DNA from: Candidatus Poribacteria bacterium
GTDB taxonomy: Bacteria > Poribacteria > WGA-4E > WGA-3G
Assembly: GCA_965205015.1 (NCBI GenBank)
Contig: OZ242029.1
Coordinates: forward strand, 3,456,001-3,520,000
Direction of reading: 5' to 3'
DNA: 64,000 nucleotides
The position numbers and the translations under genes are program-made. Positions 52,490 to 58,149 of this stretch are shown here, piece by piece (positions within the stretch are counted from its first letter, which is position 1; every line of letters begins with the position of its first letter). A model generated the notes under the pieces. That model saw nothing but the letters and a program-made list of their open reading frames with translations, had not been told where the DNA came from and ran no database searches.

Positions 52490-52915
52490 TTACTTGCGAG
52501 TCTGCGCATCGAGTTCTTCTGATGTCGGTATTTTCTGCTTGGCAGCATCTTCAAACATTGACCGAAGACTCGCCAGGGATGTCGCAATGGATTCCAGTGC
52601 CTCTACTTCGCGGATCCGAAGTTCCGCTTCCTCTGAGACAGATAGCTCAACTTGGTTTGGATCACGCTCCTCGTCTCGTTCAACCGCGTTTGACTTAGTC
52701 TTTCTTGGTGCGGGAGTATCGACGGGAAAGGTACTGAGGTATCTGGACTGCAATTGTATTTTGAGCGTCTTCTGTAACTCAATAATCTCTGGATCGTTTA
52801 GAGCCTTCTGAACCACACTGCGGTGTATACCGGTCACCTCTGCTATCTGGTTCACAGAGGGTTGCCTTAGTGACTCCTGTGCGATGCGCAGTTTTTCCTC
52901 GTAAGAAATCAACAT
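52490..52915 (-). CDS. Small HTH-containing protein
   Basis: N-terminal PSVNQIAEVTGIHRSVVQKAL is HTH-like. SD GGAGG. Confidence 0.6.
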   Translation of the reverse strand: MLISYEEKLRIAQESLRQPSVNQIAEVTGIHRSVVQKALNDPEIIELQKTLKIQLQSRYLSTFPVDTPAPRKTKSNAVERDEERDPNQVELSVSEEAELRIREVEALESIATSLASLRSMFEDAAKQKIPTSEELDAQTRK

Positions 52916-52964
52916 TTTTCATTTCCTCCATGGCATTTTACGCCATATTTTTTTATATTATGTA

Positions 52965-52993
52965 ATTATATCTCATAAAATATCAAATGTCAA
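52965..52993 (-). promoter_or_regulatory. Consensus sigma70 promoter for the HTH/ABC exporter genes
   Basis: Minus strand TTGACA-N17-TATAAT. Downstream IR ATGGC-N7-GCCAT (52930-52946). Upstream direct repeats TTTTAGTCATATT with a 20-bp period. Confidence 0.75.
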
Positions 52994-53318
52994 TAAAAAA
53001 GTTTAATTTTAGTCATATTTTGCTGTTTTTAGTCATATTACTTCATTTTTAGGTGTAAAATACTGAATATCGTTCCACTTGGATCGGAGTATAAGGTTTT
53101 TGGCATTAAGTACCACACGGTGTCTTATGTACTTGTAGGAGGGGTTTGTAACCCCGGTGTCTTAGTCCGATAGGATTTATTTGCTTGGGTATTTCTTCAA
53201 CATATTTGTGAGGGCATGGATTTCCTTTCTCTTTGATTTTCCTATACAGGCGATATGTTTATAGCGGTATGTAAAGTTTTTTCAAAATGAATTTGAATTT
53301 GTAAGATCGGTTTTTTAT

Positions 53319-53347
53319 TTGACAAGTTTCTGAAAAAAGTGTACAAT
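53319..53347 (+). promoter_or_regulatory. Strong sigma70 promoter
   Basis: TTGACA-N17-TACAAT, about 500 bp before the next clear CDS. Confidence 0.75.
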
Positions 53348-53353
53348 AAATAT

Positions 53354-53736
53354 CATGTGAGTTCGATGAAACATCTCATCTGAAACCCAAACGCGATGGG
53401 TGCCATTAATGCCCTCGCTGCGAAGCTCACTATCGCAATATCTTCTCTAAGGGGTATAGACCGTGAACCGTAAGTGTCAAGATGTGAATATTCTTAACAC
53501 GCCAATAAAACCTGTGCAGCATTGCTGTCTCTGGACGACAGTGCAGGGTGTTTTGGTACGCTGTGTGGCTGCTGTGTCAGGCACTATGCGTGGTAAACGA
53601 CAGCTCTCTACCCCCCCCTTTATACAAATTAAGCATAATACGCCACAAGGTATTTTACACAGCTGCATCGGTGTTTACGGCTGCTGCTGTTTTTTTGCGC
53701 CTGCGCGTGCATTGCACGTTGCGGGCTGTTTTTGTT
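53354..53736 (+). ncRNA. Candidate structured ncRNA or long leader of unknown class
   Basis: Lies between a promoter and a terminator-like hairpin. Several helices found by eye. No known riboswitch or housekeeping-RNA motif recognised. Confidence 0.45.
53699..53736 (+). terminator. Intrinsic terminator-like hairpin
   Basis: GCCTGCGCGTGC-ATT-GCACGTTGCGGGC followed by TGTTTTTGTT. Confidence 0.55.
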
Positions 53737-53850
53737 AGCACATAAATGTAAGTTGTTGAACATTGTTCACAGTGTTCCAATTTCACCCGTGAGGTTTGAC
53801 ACGACAAGCCTCTTAAACCACGATCTAACCGAATAGGAGGATCTTTTTAA

Positions 53851-54684
53851 ATGAAATTGTTTATGATTGTTGCTGGCGTGCTATGTGCCGCGACTCTCGT
53901 TCTCTTAGCACCTACAGCTGACGCTGCTAAAAAAATCGATGTCTTCATCTACACAGACACCGTCCAATGGATCGGTCAAGGCGCAGCGAAGGAACAAGCC
54001 GAGATATTGGCGAAAAAAATTGACGGACAACAAGGATTCGGTGAAGTCATTCTCCACGGTCCGGCAAAACAGGTCGAAGCGTGGACGAAAAAGCACACTG
54101 TTGATAAGGGAAACCATATCATTGTCATGTTCGGTGATTTCCCAAAGGAAATTTATCCGAACGGTAAAGGCGACACAAAGAAAGGTTCTGTCGCTGAGGA
54201 ATACCTTGATGCTGGCAACTCCTACTCAAACAGTGCAGACTATTTCTTCTGGGGCCAAGGCGGTCGGAATGAAAAGGAAGGCCTCCAAAACATGATGGAT
54301 ATCCCCGGCATCGTTCAATGGGATGACGATACTCCCATGAAAGTTACAAAAGAGGGGGAAAAACTCACACCGACATTGGACGATTATGGGACCGATCGTC
54401 CGTTCCACCTTGATGAACTTGATGGCGATTGGGAACTCGAAATCGCATTCGCTACGGATACTGGAACCCAAAAAGCTGACCGCTGCGATCCCTGTATCGT
54501 CCGGAATACGAAAACGGATGCTCGGCTTATACAGGTTTACCAGACCAATAACGGGGGCGATCCCATGGGCGATGTCATCGCCGAAATCCTTCTCAACTAC
54601 TATGTTGAAGCCGTTGGCGCACTTGAAGTTGACCCTCAAGATAAACTTCCCGCATTGTGGGGAGACATTAAAAGAAGGAGATAA
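53851..54684 (+). CDS. Secreted protein of unknown function with C-terminal VDPQDKLPALWGDIK tail
   Basis: Sec signal peptide (..ADA), SD AGGAGG. Paralog of the next gene. Confidence 0.85.
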   Translation: MKLFMIVAGVLCAATLVLLAPTADAAKKIDVFIYTDTVQWIGQGAAKEQAEILAKKIDGQQGFGEVILHGPAKQVEAWTKKHTVDKGNHIIVMFGDFPKEIYPNGKGDTKKGSVAEEYLDAGNSYSNSADYFFWGQGGRNEKEGLQNMMDIPGIVQWDDDTPMKVTKEGEKLTPTLDDYGTDRPFHLDELDGDWELEIAFATDTGTQKADRCDPCIVRNTKTDARLIQVYQTNNGGDPMGDVIAEILLNYYVEAVGALEVDPQDKLPALWGDIKRRR

Positions 54685-54690
54685 CACTTA

Positions 54691-55494
54691 ATGAGAAACA
54701 TTTTTCTTTCACTCACCCTGATTGCGTTAATGGCACTCCCTTTAACGGCCGTATTGGCTGCGGGTGAAGTTGCTATCTATACCGGAATCACACAATGGAT
54801 TAGTAAGGCAGCGGCTGACGAGCAGGCAGAGATTTGTGCTGGGATGCTCGATGATGCCGGTATCGCGAATATATGGTATGATAGCGATGGCCAAGCGGGG
54901 GACTTAGCCGATTGGATGGAAAGTGTCACCGGCGACGACGGTCTGGATATCTGTGTCCTCTACGGTGATTTCCCACCTGAAATCTATCCCGAAGGCAATA
55001 CACAGACGGATGGCTCTATCGCTGAGACCTTCATTGAAACCACCGATGGCGATGTTTTCATCAACCACGCCGATTATATGTTCTGGGGTTTGTCTGGCAG
55101 AAACGAGGTCGGCGGACTACAGAATATGATGGATATCGGTGGTATCACCATGTGGGACGATGATACACCTATGGTCGTCACGCCTGAAGGCAAAGCCATT
55201 TCGCCGAGTTTAACCGACTATGCCTCCGACCGCCCATTCCACGTTGATGAGCTCGAAGGCAATTGGGAAGTCGAAGTTTCACTCGCACAAAACGACGACG
55301 GCACCCGTGCCGATCCGATTATTGTTCGAGATGGGAATCTCGGTAGGTTAATTCCAGTGATACAGACCAACGGTGGAGATGAGCCGAAAGGTGCAATCGC
55401 CGCTGAAATTATCACCTATCTGATGTCTATGGTACCCGTTGAACCTGCTGGTAAACTCTCCACAACGTGGGCAGATCTGAAAGCAGTTCGGTAG
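54691..55494 (+). CDS. Secreted paralog with C-terminal VEPAGKLSTTWADLK tail
   Basis: Signal peptide. Shares GDFP.EIYP, ADY.FWG..GRNE..GLQNMMDI, WDDDTPM and DRPFH.DEL with 53851-54684. Confidence 0.85.
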   Translation: MRNIFLSLTLIALMALPLTAVLAAGEVAIYTGITQWISKAAADEQAEICAGMLDDAGIANIWYDSDGQAGDLADWMESVTGDDGLDICVLYGDFPPEIYPEGNTQTDGSIAETFIETTDGDVFINHADYMFWGLSGRNEVGGLQNMMDIGGITMWDDDTPMVVTPEGKAISPSLTDYASDRPFHVDELEGNWEVEVSLAQNDDGTRADPIIVRDGNLGRLIPVIQTNGGDEPKGAIAAEIITYLMSMVPVEPAGKLSTTWADLKAVR

Positions 55495-55562: not shown

Positions 55563-56462
55563 ATGAGATTTAGTAAAATCAGAATTCCCCGCTGGCGAGG
55601 TTTCCTAACCTCGTCTTTTGTTCTCTTGATCCTCACGTTTTTAGCGTTCGCCTGTCGCGAAAGAGCGGATTCCCCGCTCGTTGGTCCCCTTCCCATTCAA
55701 ACGATCACAACCCCCAAAGATGAAGCCGTAATGGTCTATGTTCCCGCGGGTGAATTCTTGATGGGAACCAGCGACGCAGATATTGAATACTACAAACAAA
55801 TTTTTCCGCTCCGTAGAATCACCCGATTCGACAATGAGCGTCCCCAGCGCACCGTCTTTCTGGATGCCTTCTATATCGACAAGTACGAAGTAACAAACAA
55901 ACAATACAAGAAATTTCTTGCTGAAACCGGTTATATCCCTAAACATTATCTGGACTATGAACCTTATAATACACCTAATTTCCCTGCTGCTGTTTTGGAA
56001 TGGGAAGATGCGGTTGCCTACGCAAATTGGGCCGGTAAAAGACTGCCAACGGAGGCGGAGTGGGAAAAGGCAGCTCGTGGAACGGATGGACGTATCTGGC
56101 CCTGGGGAAATGAATGGGATGGAACGAAACTCAGCGGAAATGATGGCACAGGACGCAAAGATGGATATAAAGAGACGGCACCCGTTGGACAGTTTCCGCA
56201 GGGCGCGAGTCCTTACGGCGCACACGATATGGCGGGCAACCTCTGGGAGTGGGTGTCGGATTGGTATGATCCAGACTATTATCGGACCTCGCCCCCCACT
56301 GTCAATCCGAAGGGACCCGACACCGGCGATGGACATGTCCTAAAAGGCGGCGGTTGGGCAGAGAATTTAGATTTCACCCGATGCGCCAATCGTCTTGGCG
56401 GAAACCCTGGATCTCTATTGCGCGGGTTCCGATGTGTGATAGACGCGCCGCCGGGAGAGTAA
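55563..56462 (+). CDS. SUMF1/FGE-sulfatase domain protein, possible lipoprotein
   Basis: VPAGEFLMG, IDKYEVTN, KRLPTEAEWEKAARG, DMAGNLWEW, GFRC. Confidence 0.92.
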   Translation: MRFSKIRIPRWRGFLTSSFVLLILTFLAFACRERADSPLVGPLPIQTITTPKDEAVMVYVPAGEFLMGTSDADIEYYKQIFPLRRITRFDNERPQRTVFLDAFYIDKYEVTNKQYKKFLAETGYIPKHYLDYEPYNTPNFPAAVLEWEDAVAYANWAGKRLPTEAEWEKAARGTDGRIWPWGNEWDGTKLSGNDGTGRKDGYKETAPVGQFPQGASPYGAHDMAGNLWEWVSDWYDPDYYRTSPPTVNPKGPDTGDGHVLKGGGWAENLDFTRCANRLGGNPGSLLRGFRCVIDAPPGE

Positions 56463-56687: not shown

Positions 56688-58149
56688 GGATTGGAAGCCC
56701 CGAACCTTTAGGTCGGGGAGGAAAATCCGCCCTCTTGGAAAGGTCCAAAACGTTCTTTTTTTTCTTGACATATCGTCTAAAATTGTGGTAGAATGAGAGT
56801 ATCAGGTTGGCAGACAGTGTTTAGCATTACCGCTTGGTAATGTGTCTGCCTCCCACTAAGCAGGGGATAAATATCTGATACCTGATATACCATGAACCTA
56901 ACCTTTGAATATCCTGTGTATCCAACACAGACACAGGAAGAAACCTTATTAGGATGGCTTGACCATCTCTGTGAACTTCAGAACTCTGCGCGCAACAATC
57001 GCAAACATGCGCATGAGACAGAAGGTCGTTTTGTTTCGCGATATGACCAGGAGCAACTCTTGAAGATTGCCCGTAAGAAATATGACGATTTTCGGGAAGT
57101 CCCTCAAGATTTCCAAGTGTCTATCCTCAAGCGCGTTGACAGGTCCTTTAATGCATTCCGTAAGCGGTGTAAAGAAGGAGCGGAGAAAAAAGGGTATCCT
57201 CGCTACAAAATGCGTGTGCGTTCTCTGACGTGGTGCTTGCGTAAACATAAACGCAAAACAGGTGAACGTGTCCGTCAAAACCCGATAAAAGCAACCGACT
57301 TTCGCCATAATCGCTTGAAAGTGCCGAAGTTGGGTGAAGTCAAGATACGCATGCACCGCCGGCTTGAAGGCGATCCGAAAGAAGTGACGCTCGTGAAAAA
57401 AGCAAGTGGCTGGTATGCTCATATTACCTGTGAACTCCCCGATACTCCCAAAGTTGCGCCGACCGATGCGGTCGCTGTTGATGTCGGCACGACACACTAC
57501 CTGACGACTTCTGAAGGTGAAACAGAAGATAATCCGCGTTGGTATCGCAGGTCCGAAGGTTTGCTACGAAAACACTCTAAAGCCCTTTCTCGAAAGAAAA
57601 AAGGCAGCCAGCGTTGGCAGAAACAACAACACAAACTCGCTTTGCACCATGAACGCACAACGAACAAGCGCAAAGACTTTATCGGTAAACTCGTCTACAA
57701 ACTCTATCATCATCTAAAAAACAACGTCCTTATCGCTGAAGACCTCAGCGTATCTAACATGGTTCAGAATAAACACCTCAGCAAGAGCATCAGCGATGCC
57801 TCTTGGGCAAAGTTCTTTCAGTGGGCTGGAAACATGGTTCCGAAAGAGACGGTTTCCACTTCCACCAAGTCGATCCTAAGAACACTTCGCAAACCTGCTC
57901 TGCCTGCGGTAAGAAGTCGCCAAAGAAACTGTCGCTGGCGACACGCACCTTTAATTGTAGTTTTTGTGGCACGGTTTTAGACCGCGACCACAATGCTGCA
58001 ATAAACATACTTTTGCGGGCGGCTCGCGCCCATCGTGGAGAGCGTTGGGTTACCAACCTCTATGAAACGAGAAACTTACCGGTAGACCGGTAGGCTTGTT
58101 GGAACTAACACGCTAACAAGCCCCATGCTTTAGCATGGGGTACTATGAC
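56688..58149 (+). mobile_element. IS200/IS605-family element carrying only tnpB (IS1341-like); ends approximate
   Basis: Subterminal hairpins CCCCGAACCTTTAGGTCGGGG (56698-56718) and CCCCATGCTTTAGCATGGGG (58121-58140), both preceded by AAG. No tnpA. Confidence 0.85.
56892..58093 (+). pseudogene. tnpB: RNA-guided endonuclease TnpB with a frameshift near 57835-57841
   Basis: RuvC-I AVDVG and RuvC-II IAEDL in the first frame. Zn finger TSQTCSACG...C..CG and RuvC-III DRDHNAA in the second frame. Confidence 0.88.

Follow-up and report, generated by a model that had tools for sequence, protein, structure and literature searches.

The region at positions 53319-53850 of the window, by which is meant the whole stretch of 64,000 nucleotides of Candidatus Poribacteria DNA that was analysed, lies immediately upstream of a gene for a secreted protein. 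It contains a promoter, a short leader reading frame with a run of cytosines, and two terminator-like hairpins. The features are listed below.

53319-53347, + strand: P1, a sigma-70-type promoter (TTGACA-N17-TACAAT) driving the leader (promoter scan, 11/12 matches)
53346-53351, no strand: left ATAAAT direct repeat, edge of a segment of about 396 bp (sequence and alignments with empty sites)
53352-53448, + strand: 5' untranslated domain of the leader with outer helix GUGAG...CUCAC, present only in the window and loci L026, L027, and L028
53449-53454, + strand: Shine-Dalgarno (SD)-like AAGGGG, 8 nt before the GTG start (sequence; an SD-like motif precedes the equivalent start in most copies)
53463-53738, + strand: leader ORF with GTG start, 91 codons in its present phase, running through both terminators to TAG at 53736-53738 (ORF list)
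53596-53742, + strand: conserved 147-nt family module of poly-C, small palindrome, AT-rich spacer, T1, and T2 (model R1, 129.7 bits, E 4.6e-25)
53611-53618, + strand: poly-C tract of the leader ORF (C8), encoding Pro-Pro and setting the downstream frame by its length (sequence)
53630-53632, + strand: TAA in an alternative frame, where the leader ORF would stop 27 nt before T1 with one more C (frame analysis)
53660-53696, + strand: T1, an intrinsic-terminator-like hairpin (53660-53689) followed by seven T (53690-53696) (hairpin scan, covariation)
53699-53736, + strand: T2, a highly conserved terminator-like hairpin (53699-53726) with a T-rich tail to 53736 (covariation, 97% of cells paired)
53742-53747, no strand: right ATAAAT direct repeat (sequence and alignments with empty sites)
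53791-53824, + strand: 5'-UTR hairpin GAGGTTTG/CAAGCCTC, overlapping the proposed weak second promoter (TTGACA 53796-53801, CACGAT 53819-53824) (ortholog alignments)
53851-54684, + strand: gene for a 277-aa secreted protein with a signal-peptide-like N-terminus (ORF list, hydrophobicity score)

An earlier sequence-only reading had described P1 as a near-consensus promoter, and alignments bear this out, P1 being kept at orthologous loci both with and without the insert described below. In related genomes without the insert, P1 lies about 100 bp from the orthologous gene and is thus the promoter of that gene. Orthologs of the gene for the 277-aa protein occur at 25 Poribacteria loci, and Pfam and NCBIfam profile searches with this protein returned no family. 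NCBIfam searches with six downstream proteins gave one weak sub-threshold match, and none for the two window proteins. A weaker second promoter had also been proposed at 53796-53824. Its TTGNCA-like and TANNAT-like hexamers hold their position in six orthologs (alignments read by eye), but the site fails the promoter scan in the window; it could serve the secreted-protein gene independently. In L026, the closest relative, both arms of the overlapping 5'-UTR hairpin have changed and the hairpin is retained.

About 396 bp of the window is missing at the orthologous sites of closely related genomes, and the segment carries ATAAAT repeats on both edges. At the empty sites (L002, L017, L001, and L003) a single related hexamer is found in place of the two ATAAAT copies. 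Such sites would be explained equally well by deletion between the short direct repeats. Locus L028 has a partial form of the segment and L006 has a different subfamily in the same intergenic region, and in one genome copies that are 83-89% identical precede unrelated genes. Terminal inverted repeats, as in a MITE-like non-autonomous transposon, were sought at the segment ends and none were found, nor was a transposase. A BLAST search of the insert against the first five genomes gave nothing at E ≤ 0.01; the family was found by a phylum-wide search of Poribacteria and a covariance model.

The 3' 130-147 nt of the cassette, consisting of the poly-C tract followed by two covarying terminator hairpins, is a dispersed module. 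The covariance model R1 detected it in 84 of the 150 Poribacteria genomes sampled (478 matches at E ≤ 0.001), the search for module and cassette being confined to Candidatus Poribacteria. Within the window R1 has a single match, at 53596-53742. The sequence-only reading had stated that the region lacks the repeat families of most other intergenic regions; this holds inside the window, where there is no second copy, but not across Poribacteria, where the 3' part is a multi-copy family. Module statistics were obtained from 41 unique copies among the loci examined, and since these copies are related by descent, the counts overstate their independence. Neither Rfam nor Pfam has an entry for the cassette, and literature searches returned nothing on such an element in Poribacteria.

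The two hairpin and T-tract elements proposed earlier at 53660-53696 and 53699-53736 were confirmed by covariation over 29 aligned copies. In these copies 91.7% of the T1 and T2 cells are paired, as against 33-57% with slid partners; 11 pairs have changes in both partners, and none of the shuffles (0/500) attains the observed level. A simple terminator scan lists T1 only. No conserved antiterminator or alternative helix was found in the consensus fold of the 29 copies or in single folds of 28, in a search that was not exhaustive. In addition, the motifs TTAAC and GTTAA are enriched (61 and 66 seen vs 19 and 20 expected), with clusters to either side of the poly-C tract. A function at the nucleic-acid level may lie behind these motifs. 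Much of the apparent peptide conservation coincides with the same motifs read in different frames, and the non-coding tail of the cassette is more conserved than the leader ORF.

The region had been put forward mainly as a standalone, novel structured RNA of about 380 nt with extensive pairing, and the present data speak against this. Positions 53354-53740 have a minimum folding energy of -115.6 kcal/mol, the mean of the shuffles being -114.6 (z -0.19); the fold is at least as stable in 39 of 100 shuffles, and the minus strand gives z -0.78. The supposed multi-way junction lies inside the reading frame, in sequence that is replaced in other copies of the family, and the long-range helix enclosing it gains nothing from L026, where the alignment (read by eye) has no compensatory change, one change leaving a mismatch and one breaking a pair. 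The outer helix of the 5' domain is retained in all four sequences that have the domain, but covariation is seen in only 2 of 25 pairs. That the 5' domain is a separate repeat family was considered and rejected, the domain being restricted to four loci of the window's subfamily. The statement that the region has no known RNA motif was upheld, with no Rfam match at gathering score in the whole window; matches in 52900-53900 are at chance level (E 0.3 to 8.9), the best scoring 25.5 bits against a gathering score of 55.

A downstream ORF is present in 38 of the 41 copies and is co-oriented with the module in every case (38/38); the other three copies have none, at least one of them lying at a contig end. 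Genes upstream of the cassette occur in either orientation. By a crude hydrophobicity score, 33 of the 38 downstream ORFs have a signal-peptide-like N-terminus, compared with 25 of 53 other ORFs of the same loci. At least 11 mutually unrelated groups can be distinguished among the downstream proteins, with LamG, NPCBM, FGE-sulfatase, LRR, and cadherin proteins represented. The gap between module and downstream start ranges from 73 to 423 nt. The 260 nt upstream of the leader ORF contain a promoter with at least 11/12 matches in 29 of 38 copies; such a promoter occurs on the opposite strand in 3 of 38, and in the 260 nt past the module in 0 of 38. The secondary suggestion of the sequence-only reading, that of a leader for the secreted-protein gene, is supported by this order of promoter, terminators, and secreted gene, with co-orientation in all 38 scorable copies and no strong promoter between module and gene in any of them. 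Based on these comparisons, the region 53319-53850 is one copy of a repeated, portable, putative control cassette of sponge-symbiont Poribacteria that stands before secreted-protein genes, and the cassette probably gates the genes downstream of it.

The SD (AAGGGG) and the GTG ORF at 53463 noted in the sequence-only reading are both present and are features of a conserved family. The companion statement that the region has no convincing gene needs qualification, a short ORF with its own SD being conserved among the copies. An SD-preceded ATG or GTG lies 95-170 nt before the tract, with the frame open to the tract, in 31 of 39 copies, and L026 has ATG at the place of the window's GTG start. The frame is open for 35 of 39 starts preceded by an SD, compared with 37 of 75 starts that are not. 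Between the window and L026 the ORF part has no indels, and the substitutions number 4, 2, and 10 by codon position. In seven close pairs, indels within the ORF part are absent or 3 nt long, and the flanks are rich in indels that are not multiples of three. A codon-position bias in the ORF is seen in only 2 of 10 pairs, and the sequence of the leader peptide is therefore weakly constrained at best. Pfam searches with the 91-aa ORF and five family peptides gave nothing below E 0.1, and 11 database proteins match the leader peptide profile. The peptides vary in their middle part and share no conserved hydrophobic segment, and strong antisense promoters occur at only 3 of 38 copies, which speaks against the type I toxin mRNA that had been offered as an alternative.

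The tract itself varies in length. Tracts of the family range from 6 to 16 C, and the length differs between close copies, as in the window (C8) and L026 (C9), L049 and L048 (C11) and L031 (C12), L052 (C9) and L053 (C10), and three copies of one genome, G141 (C10, C12, and C10). In some close copies that differ in tract length, the end of the ORF switches. In the window the three frames stop 14, 120, and 127 nt past the tract. Counted from the tract, the stop codon of the ORF comes within 6-32 nt in 29 of 39 copies, and in 10 of 39, including the window, the ORF continues for 120-299 nt; this split is close to the random-frame expectation for copies with two closed frames and is not by itself a sign of selection. 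At least one frame is open from the tract to the end of T2 in 39 of 40 copies, compared with 18.7 expected from mononucleotide shuffles. A conserved long ORF through the whole module was considered and rejected, because copies differ as to which frame is open across the terminators, and in many of them no such frame runs from the leader start. The tract encodes two to five prolines in every frame and is almost always pure C, not mixed proline codons. The proline runs in the leader resemble the regulatory codons of classical amino-acid leader-peptide attenuators of the trp/his type. Scans of metagenome contigs for strain variants of the tract gave 0 matches, which has no bearing on tract variation.

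Transcription of the region was examined in a sponge metatranscriptome library, X17. The RNA runs were available as Logan contigs, which cannot show RNA ends or rare variants. One contig covers 53392-53673 and another spans 53648-53894, across both terminators and into the gene, and 53228-53341 has no contig cover. Uncovered stretches in the runs X20 and X4 were left out of the interpretation. The contig over the terminators and gene start has a depth of 63, compared with 7 for the contig over the leader ORF. This difference is not predicted by a sole upstream promoter followed by terminators; mixed strains, RNA stability, or an internal start may be behind it. One DNA run also breaks near the tract.

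Of the explanations considered, we lean toward a translation-gated leader-peptide attenuator in which the length of the poly-C tract sets the reading frame, and judge it somewhat better than evenly balanced. The layout is the strong promoter P1, a 5' UTR of about 100 nt, a ribosome-binding site and the leader ORF, the C tract, about 40 nt of further sequence, T1 and T2, and a co-oriented secreted-protein gene. Transcripts from P1 would reach the gene only by passing T1 and T2, and their passage would be set by how far ribosomes translate the leader ORF. With the short frame, the ORF would stop about 27-40 nt before T1, the hairpins would form, and transcription would end (OFF or low). With the long frame or frames, the ORF would remain open through both hairpins, and a ribosome trailing the polymerase would block their formation (ON). 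Because the C tract is an indel-prone repeat, its length, in setting the frame, would act as a heritable and reversible switch. The window copy with C8 is in the long frame and is predicted to be ON, and a change to C9 would place it in the short frame. In addition, the coupling may be tuned by the tract's prolines, at which the ribosome may be slowed.

The same features can be read in other ways. P1, the short ORF, and T1 and T2 might make up an independent small gene for a small proline-tailed peptide or its mRNA, with the secreted-protein gene served by its own weaker or alternative-sigma promoter and the two being neighbours since the cassette is portable or co-regulated. This is unlikely. 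In its favour, promoter, SD, ORF, and double terminator form a complete gene layout, in 29 of 39 copies the stop of the ORF precedes the terminators, the promoter-like site at 53796-53824 holds its place in six orthologs, the 73-423 nt gaps leave room for a promoter, and there are the 11 database proteins that match the peptide profile. A self-contained gene does not predict the 38/38 co-orientation, and it sits poorly with the lack of promoters of at least 11/12 in the 260 nt past the module (0/38), with the RNA-library contig that bridges the terminators into the gene, and with the role of P1 as the gene promoter in relatives lacking the insert. The peptide also has an unconserved middle, with no codon-position bias in most pairs, and the ORF is less conserved than the non-coding tail. 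A second alternative keeps the attenuator and makes it physiological: consecutive prolines would pause the ribosome, depending on elongation factor P or charged prolyl-tRNA, and uncouple the polymerase so that T1 and T2 act, the change in tract length being incidental. The two to five prolines encoded in every frame are in agreement with this, and the long-frame copies, including the window, have prolines just upstream of terminators in a translated frame, an arrangement in which EF-P-dependent read-through was reported by Elgamal, Artsimovitch and Ibba (2016; PMC5021804). Nevertheless, a tract that is nearly always pure C points to a property at the nucleotide level, pausing could not protect the terminators in the 29 of 39 copies whose ORF stops before them, the window has only Pro-Pro, and no conserved antiterminator alternative was seen in the folds of 29 and 28 copies; we consider this explanation quite unlikely.

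The segment of about 396 bp could be a non-autonomous mobile or decaying insertion without a regulatory role that carries the ORF and terminators by chance, in line with its presence or absence at the orthologous site, the ATAAAT on both sides as against one related hexamer when empty, the partial form in L028, the other subfamily in the same intergenic region of L006, and the 83-89% identical copies before unrelated genes of one genome. This is very unlikely. No terminal inverted repeats or transposase were found, deletion between the direct repeats accounts for the empty sites equally well, and the 38/38 orientation and position at secreted-protein genes, the maintained SD and ORF, and the terminator covariation all point to function or to strong targeting; the attenuator, too, can accommodate a portable element. 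The tract could instead lie between regulator-binding TTAAC and GTTAA motifs and set the spacing of an internal, activator-dependent promoter, making phase variation a matter of DNA, with gene transcripts starting past the tract. The enrichment of these motifs on both sides of the tract fits this reading, as does the rise in RNA depth from 7 to 63 at the contig that starts at 53648, 30 nt past the tract. It is highly improbable all the same: no -10/-35 pair of consistent fixed spacing was seen past the tract across copies (alignment read by eye), transcripts would begin just before two terminators, the conservation of SD and ORF is left unexplained, and as to the rise in depth, RNA starts cannot be read from the end of a contig, and a break near the tract is present in a DNA run too. 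Finally, the standalone structured RNA of about 380 nt with a multi-way junction can still point to a promoter and terminators of its own and to an ORF without a protein family match. It is barely plausible given a folding energy equal to that of shuffles, third-position-biased substitutions without indels between the window and L026 (4, 2, and 10), and a junction region that is swapped for unrelated sequence in other subfamilies while SD, ORF, and tract persist, the central junction being coding-like and unconserved outside the closest relatives.

Poribacteria are uncultured and widespread symbionts of sponges, and their secreted and eukaryote-like proteins are thought to mediate the interaction with the host. 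The tract-dependent attenuator might extend to a phylum-wide contingency system, in which each genome would have dozens of genes for proteins of secreted, adhesin-like, and eukaryote-like kinds (LamG, LRR, cadherin, FGE-sulfatase, NPCBM, and unknowns), every one behind its own cassette and switched independently by single-base slippage; this wider proposal is tentative and rather doubtful. If it is true, the set of host-facing proteins displayed by a clonal symbiont population within its sponge would keep changing. Should the cassette work as proposed, it would represent stochastic phase variation in a beneficial symbiont and not in a pathogen, by a mechanism (a leader-ORF repeat that gates a terminator) that Danne et al. 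(2014) demonstrated for one pilus system of a streptococcus. The cassette marks a putative regulon, and with R1, candidate genes for host interaction can be picked out in any Poribacteria genome. The cassette is also a caution, in annotation work, against calling such regions orphan non-coding RNAs or long Cys-rich ORFs.

Several known systems share parts of this arrangement. Homopolymeric-tract contingency loci of host-associated bacteria have an indel-prone run of G or C at surface- or secreted-protein genes, the tract usually lying within the regulated gene's own coding sequence or between promoter elements. In the cassette, unlike these loci, the tract lies in a separate upstream leader ORF ahead of terminators. 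In the pyrBI and pyrE attenuators of Escherichia coli, ribosomes translate a leader ORF as far as an intrinsic terminator or through it, and coupling between ribosome and polymerase decides read-through. These attenuators are single loci without a hypermutable repeat, and their response to nucleotide pools is mediated by pausing of the polymerase. The cassette resembles them in that its leader ORF is proposed to be translated toward or through an intrinsic terminator, and differs from them in its hypermutable repeat and its dispersed family. Elgamal, Artsimovitch and Ibba (2016; PMC5021804) have described that intrinsic terminators lying within translated RNA can act when ribosomes stall at polyproline. 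In a similar manner, the window in its long-frame state has consecutive proline codons upstream of an intrinsic terminator in a translated frame; that study was done with engineered reporters and candidate E. coli loci, whereas the cassette has a pure C run and most of its ORFs end before the terminators. Danne et al. (2014; PMC3894217) have reported for the pil1 locus of Streptococcus gallolyticus that a short leader peptide ends 39 bp before a terminator and that out-of-frame repeat changes give longer peptides ending in or after the terminator, with transcription raised, as established by experiment. According to the same authors, pil1 (and pil3) have a promoter, a leader ORF with a simple-sequence repeat, an intrinsic terminator, and surface-structure genes, as is the case in the cassette. 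The window holds a promoter with ribosome-binding site and leader ORF, a repeat within the ORF, predicted terminators before the gene, and one short and alternative long frames. In both systems the short form of the ORF ends tens of nucleotides before the terminator (39 bp for pil1 and 27 nt for the window's alternative frame) and longer forms end in or after it. The cassette differs in that its repeat is a homopolymeric run of 6-16 C instead of GCAGA pentamers, in its two tandem terminators, and in being a portable multi-copy family before many unrelated secreted-protein genes, found in 84 of the 150 sampled genomes of a different, uncultured phylum. The logic of pil1 was demonstrated by experiment, and the Poribacteria cassette is known here from sequence comparison. 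Overall, the phase-variable leader-peptide attenuator of pil1 is the closest described system, and the cassette may be regarded as a variant of it.

The region behind the promoter P1 is well supported as a member of a cassette family dispersed in Poribacteria, in which a promoter, an SD motif, a leader ORF, a C run and two terminator-like hairpins (T1 and T2) precede a secreted-protein gene. The features in and around the cassette in the window are as follows.

52490-52915, minus strand: divergent 141-aa ORF, no Pfam family
52965-52993, minus strand: perfect consensus promoter TTGACA-N17-TATAAT (12/12), facing the divergent ORF
53319-53347, plus strand: promoter P1, TTGACA-N17-TACAAT, 11/12 consensus matches
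53449-53454, plus strand: SD AAGGGG
53463, plus strand: leader start GTG
53660-53689, plus strand: T1 hairpin, then T7 at 53690-53696 (sequence, aligned copies)
53699-53726, plus strand: T2 hairpin, then a T-rich tail to 53736 (sequence, aligned copies)
53851-54684, plus strand: downstream secreted-protein gene, 277 aa, signal-peptide-like N-terminus
56892-57980: ORF with an OrfB_IS605 (TnpB-like) domain (E 4e-19), no sequence link to the cassette

When 175 Poribacteria genomes were searched with BLAST, the final ~130 nt of the segment between P1 and the gene proved to be multi-copy in many of them. This conserved module has the order C run, small palindrome (consensus CTTTACA..GTTAAGT), AT-rich spacer, T1 with its T run, and T2 with its T-rich tail. 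An alignment (A3) and a covariance model (R1) were built from 29 module copies. Of 150 sampled Poribacteria genomes, 84 had R1 matches, at least 478 in total and 1–18 scored per genome; the scoring covered Poribacteria only and at most 20 candidates per genome. The window holds one copy. Across the 29 copies, 91.7% of cells in the module hairpins were paired, against 33–57% with slid partners, and 11 pairs were altered on both sides, values reached by 0 of 500 shuffles. Both module hairpins are supported by these aligned copies.

The sequence-only reading had proposed a novel structured RNA here, and its observations are partly confirmed. The promoter is present, and the two hairpin and T-tract elements it described are T1 and T2. 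The extensive pairing it saw did not hold, since the minimum free energy of 53354-53740 (-115.6 kcal/mol) is at the level of dinucleotide-preserving shuffles (-114.6; z -0.19), with z -0.78 for the opposite strand; a novel structured RNA is thus unsupported. The Rfam search it suggested found no family reaching gathering score anywhere in the window and, within 52900-53900, only chance-level matches. Its alternatives, an attenuating leader or an SD with a GTG ORF, come near the best explanation.

The 277-aa protein has no Pfam or NCBIfam family, and its relatives were found at 25 loci, all in Candidatus Poribacteria metagenome-assembled genomes. Four of these (L001, L002, L003 and L017) carry the P1 sequence ~100 bp ahead of the orthologous start codon and lack ~396 bp of the window (53352-53747, equivalently 53346-53741). 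The segment is bordered in the window by ATAAAT on each side (53346-53351 and 53742-53747), and the empty sites have a single hexamer related to it. Genome G135 (locus L026) has the full segment with 81% identity to the window, G124 (L028) has kept only its first ~100 nt, and L006 has the orthologous promoter together with a cassette of a different subfamily bearing its own promoter. Given these differing states at the orthologous site, the segment is an indel polymorphism within the promoter-to-gene interval. The cassette type of the window, promoter included, stands ahead of an unrelated gene in G120 (L027).

Among 41 unique module copies at the loci examined, 38 have a downstream ORF, co-oriented with the module in all 38; the other three have none, at least one of them lying at a contig end. 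Upstream genes occur in either orientation and are at least 250 nt off in nearly all copies. The module is therefore associated with the gene behind it and not with the gene before it. On a crude score, a hydrophobic N-terminal stretch was present in 33 of the 38 downstream proteins vs 25 of 53 other ORFs at the same loci, and many downstream N-termini are, by eye, classical or lipoprotein signal peptides. Because these proteins belong to at least 11 unrelated groups, with domains including LamG (2), NPCBM, FGE-sulfatase (3), LRR, and cadherin plus LRR and several without a family, the module is not merely copied along with one gene family.

Other features of these neighborhoods were also observed. 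FGE-sulfatase-domain proteins recur, as the third gene after the window cassette (55563-56462) and directly behind cassette copies in L034, L048, and L049. A C-terminal motif, approximately LAVEPxxKLxTTWGxIK plus a few basic residues and not followed by a membrane segment, is common to unrelated secreted proteins behind cassettes and was seen in 10 of the 24 downstream proteins. It is carried in the window at 54640-54684 and 55450-55494, where the two paralogous genes end in ...DKLPALWGDIKRRR and ...GKLSTTWADLKAVR, and in L051, L035, L031, L006, L026, L050, L030, L054, and L052. The motif may be an undescribed Poribacteria sorting or secretion signal. Upstream of P1, contig depth over 53114-53227 is very high in each of the four runs examined, DNA runs included. 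The stretch contains short direct repeats (CGGTGTCTTA at 53118 and 53155) and probably represents another of the intergenic repeat families mentioned by the earlier reading.

Of 38 copies, 29 have a same-strand promoter with at least 11/12 consensus matches no more than 260 nt ahead of the leader ORF (median 85 nt from -10 box to ORF start); 3 have such a promoter on the other strand, and none has one in the 260-nt stretch that follows the module. Since, in addition, P1 is the promoter of the gene at the empty sites, these data argue that transcription of the downstream gene starts at the cassette promoter and passes through T1 and T2. A weak second promoter at 53796-53824 might serve the gene independently in the window's ortholog group, where alignment reading finds TTGNCA-like and TANNAT-like hexamers retained in six orthologs. 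The site also overlaps a hairpin, GAGGTTTG/CAAGCCTC, which L026 keeps via a two-sided change (alignment reading). Two or three tandem consensus promoters ~60–85 nt apart were seen upstream of the leader ORF in L048, L070, L075, L076, L077, L046, and L031.

The RNA data are contigs of public runs, which are unable to show transcript ends. Contigs of X17, a sponge metatranscriptome library from relatives ~94% identical to the window, cover 53392-53673 (depth 7) and 53648-53894 (depth 63), the latter spanning both terminators into the gene. No X17 contig covers 53228-53341, part of which (from 53304) is covered by the DNA run X5. The X17 contigs fit transcription from P1 with some read-through, with the caveat that DNA was possibly present in the library. 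Depth over the terminators and gene start is ~9x that over the leader ORF, which might come from a mixture of strains, from RNA stability or from an internal start.

In 31 of 39 copies, a G-rich SD-like motif stands 5–15 nt ahead of an ATG or GTG that is itself 95–170 nt before the C run and in a frame open to the run; L026 has an ATG at the position of GTG 53463. The frame was open to the C run for 35/39 SD-preceded starts vs 37/75 starts without an SD. Seven close pairs, when compared, show either no indel or one of 3 nt within the ORF part, against many of lengths not divisible by 3 in the flanks. Constraint on the leader peptide itself is weak. Third-position bias is confined to window-L026 (4, 2, 10) and L051-L006 (7, 6, 13), the peptide middle is variable, and those residues that do recur (I-N close to the start; N..L-T ahead of the prolines) overlap TTAAC/GTTAA motifs read in differing frames. 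The leader peptides matched no Pfam family, and a profile of 21 of them gave 11 matches among 5.8 billion proteins, the one named being a hypothetical Poribacteria protein. The SD and start of the sequence-only reading stand, but its 91-aa 'Cys-rich' protein is rejected as a conserved product, because no single frame conserved across the terminators was found among the copies; only the first ~50 codons correspond to the family ORF.

The C run has 6–16 C in the copies examined, is nearly always uninterrupted, and encodes 2–5 prolines whatever the frame. The leader ORF ends 6–32 nt after it in 29/39 copies, at TAA/TAG of the conserved palindrome, and continues 120–299 nt past it in 10/39, including the window. 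Past the run, the three frames of the window stop after 14, 120, and 127 nt. With C8 the ORF is in the 120-nt frame and ends at TAG 53736-53738, at the T2 end; one C more would end it at TAA 53630-53632, 27 nt before T1, and one C fewer would place it in the 127-nt frame. Run lengths differ between close copies (window C8 vs L026 C9; L052 C9 vs L053 C10; L049 and L048 C11 vs L031 C12; three copies in genome G141 with C10, C12, and C10) and switch the ORF end in some cases. At least one frame is open from the C run to the T2 end in 39/40 copies vs 18.7 expected from mononucleotide shuffles, and the last 78 nt have a mean of 2.6 open frames vs 1.6 expected. This excess is suggestive and not proof, because the copies are related and the hairpins constrain the sequence. 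TTAAC and GTTAA pentamers are ~3x over-represented in the family copies (61 and 66 seen vs 19 and 20 expected), ~130 nt and 10–30 nt before the C run and ~10 nt after it (in the window, TTAAC at 53493-53497 and CTTTATACAAATTAAG at 53619-53633). They flank the run as small palindromes, often GTTAAC-N5-GTTAAC, and could be weak hairpins or protein-binding sites.

The anatomy of the cassette matches that of a translation-gated attenuator. With a short leader ORF, translation would end before the terminators and T1 and T2 would act; with a long one, ribosomes would pass through them so that they fail; and the slippage-prone C run would pick between the two. We lean modestly toward the cassette gating its gene in this way, through leader translation and run length. 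The prolines from the C run could tune the switch, since Elgamal et al. (2016, PMC5021804) report that stalling at polyproline breaks the coupling between ribosome and polymerase, so that intrinsic terminators can act. Danne et al. (2014, PMC3894217) showed this leader-ORF/terminator gating logic by experiment for pil1 of Streptococcus gallolyticus. In its short form the leader peptide there stops 39 bp ahead of the terminator, and out-of-frame changes in a GCAGA repeat lead to longer peptides and to a high level of pilus transcription. As described there, pil1 likewise has a leader ORF with a repeat, the short form of which stops before the terminator and the long form of which reads on. The Poribacteria cassette differs from pil1 in having a homopolymer in place of a pentamer repeat, two terminators, and a portable multi-copy family in another phylum.
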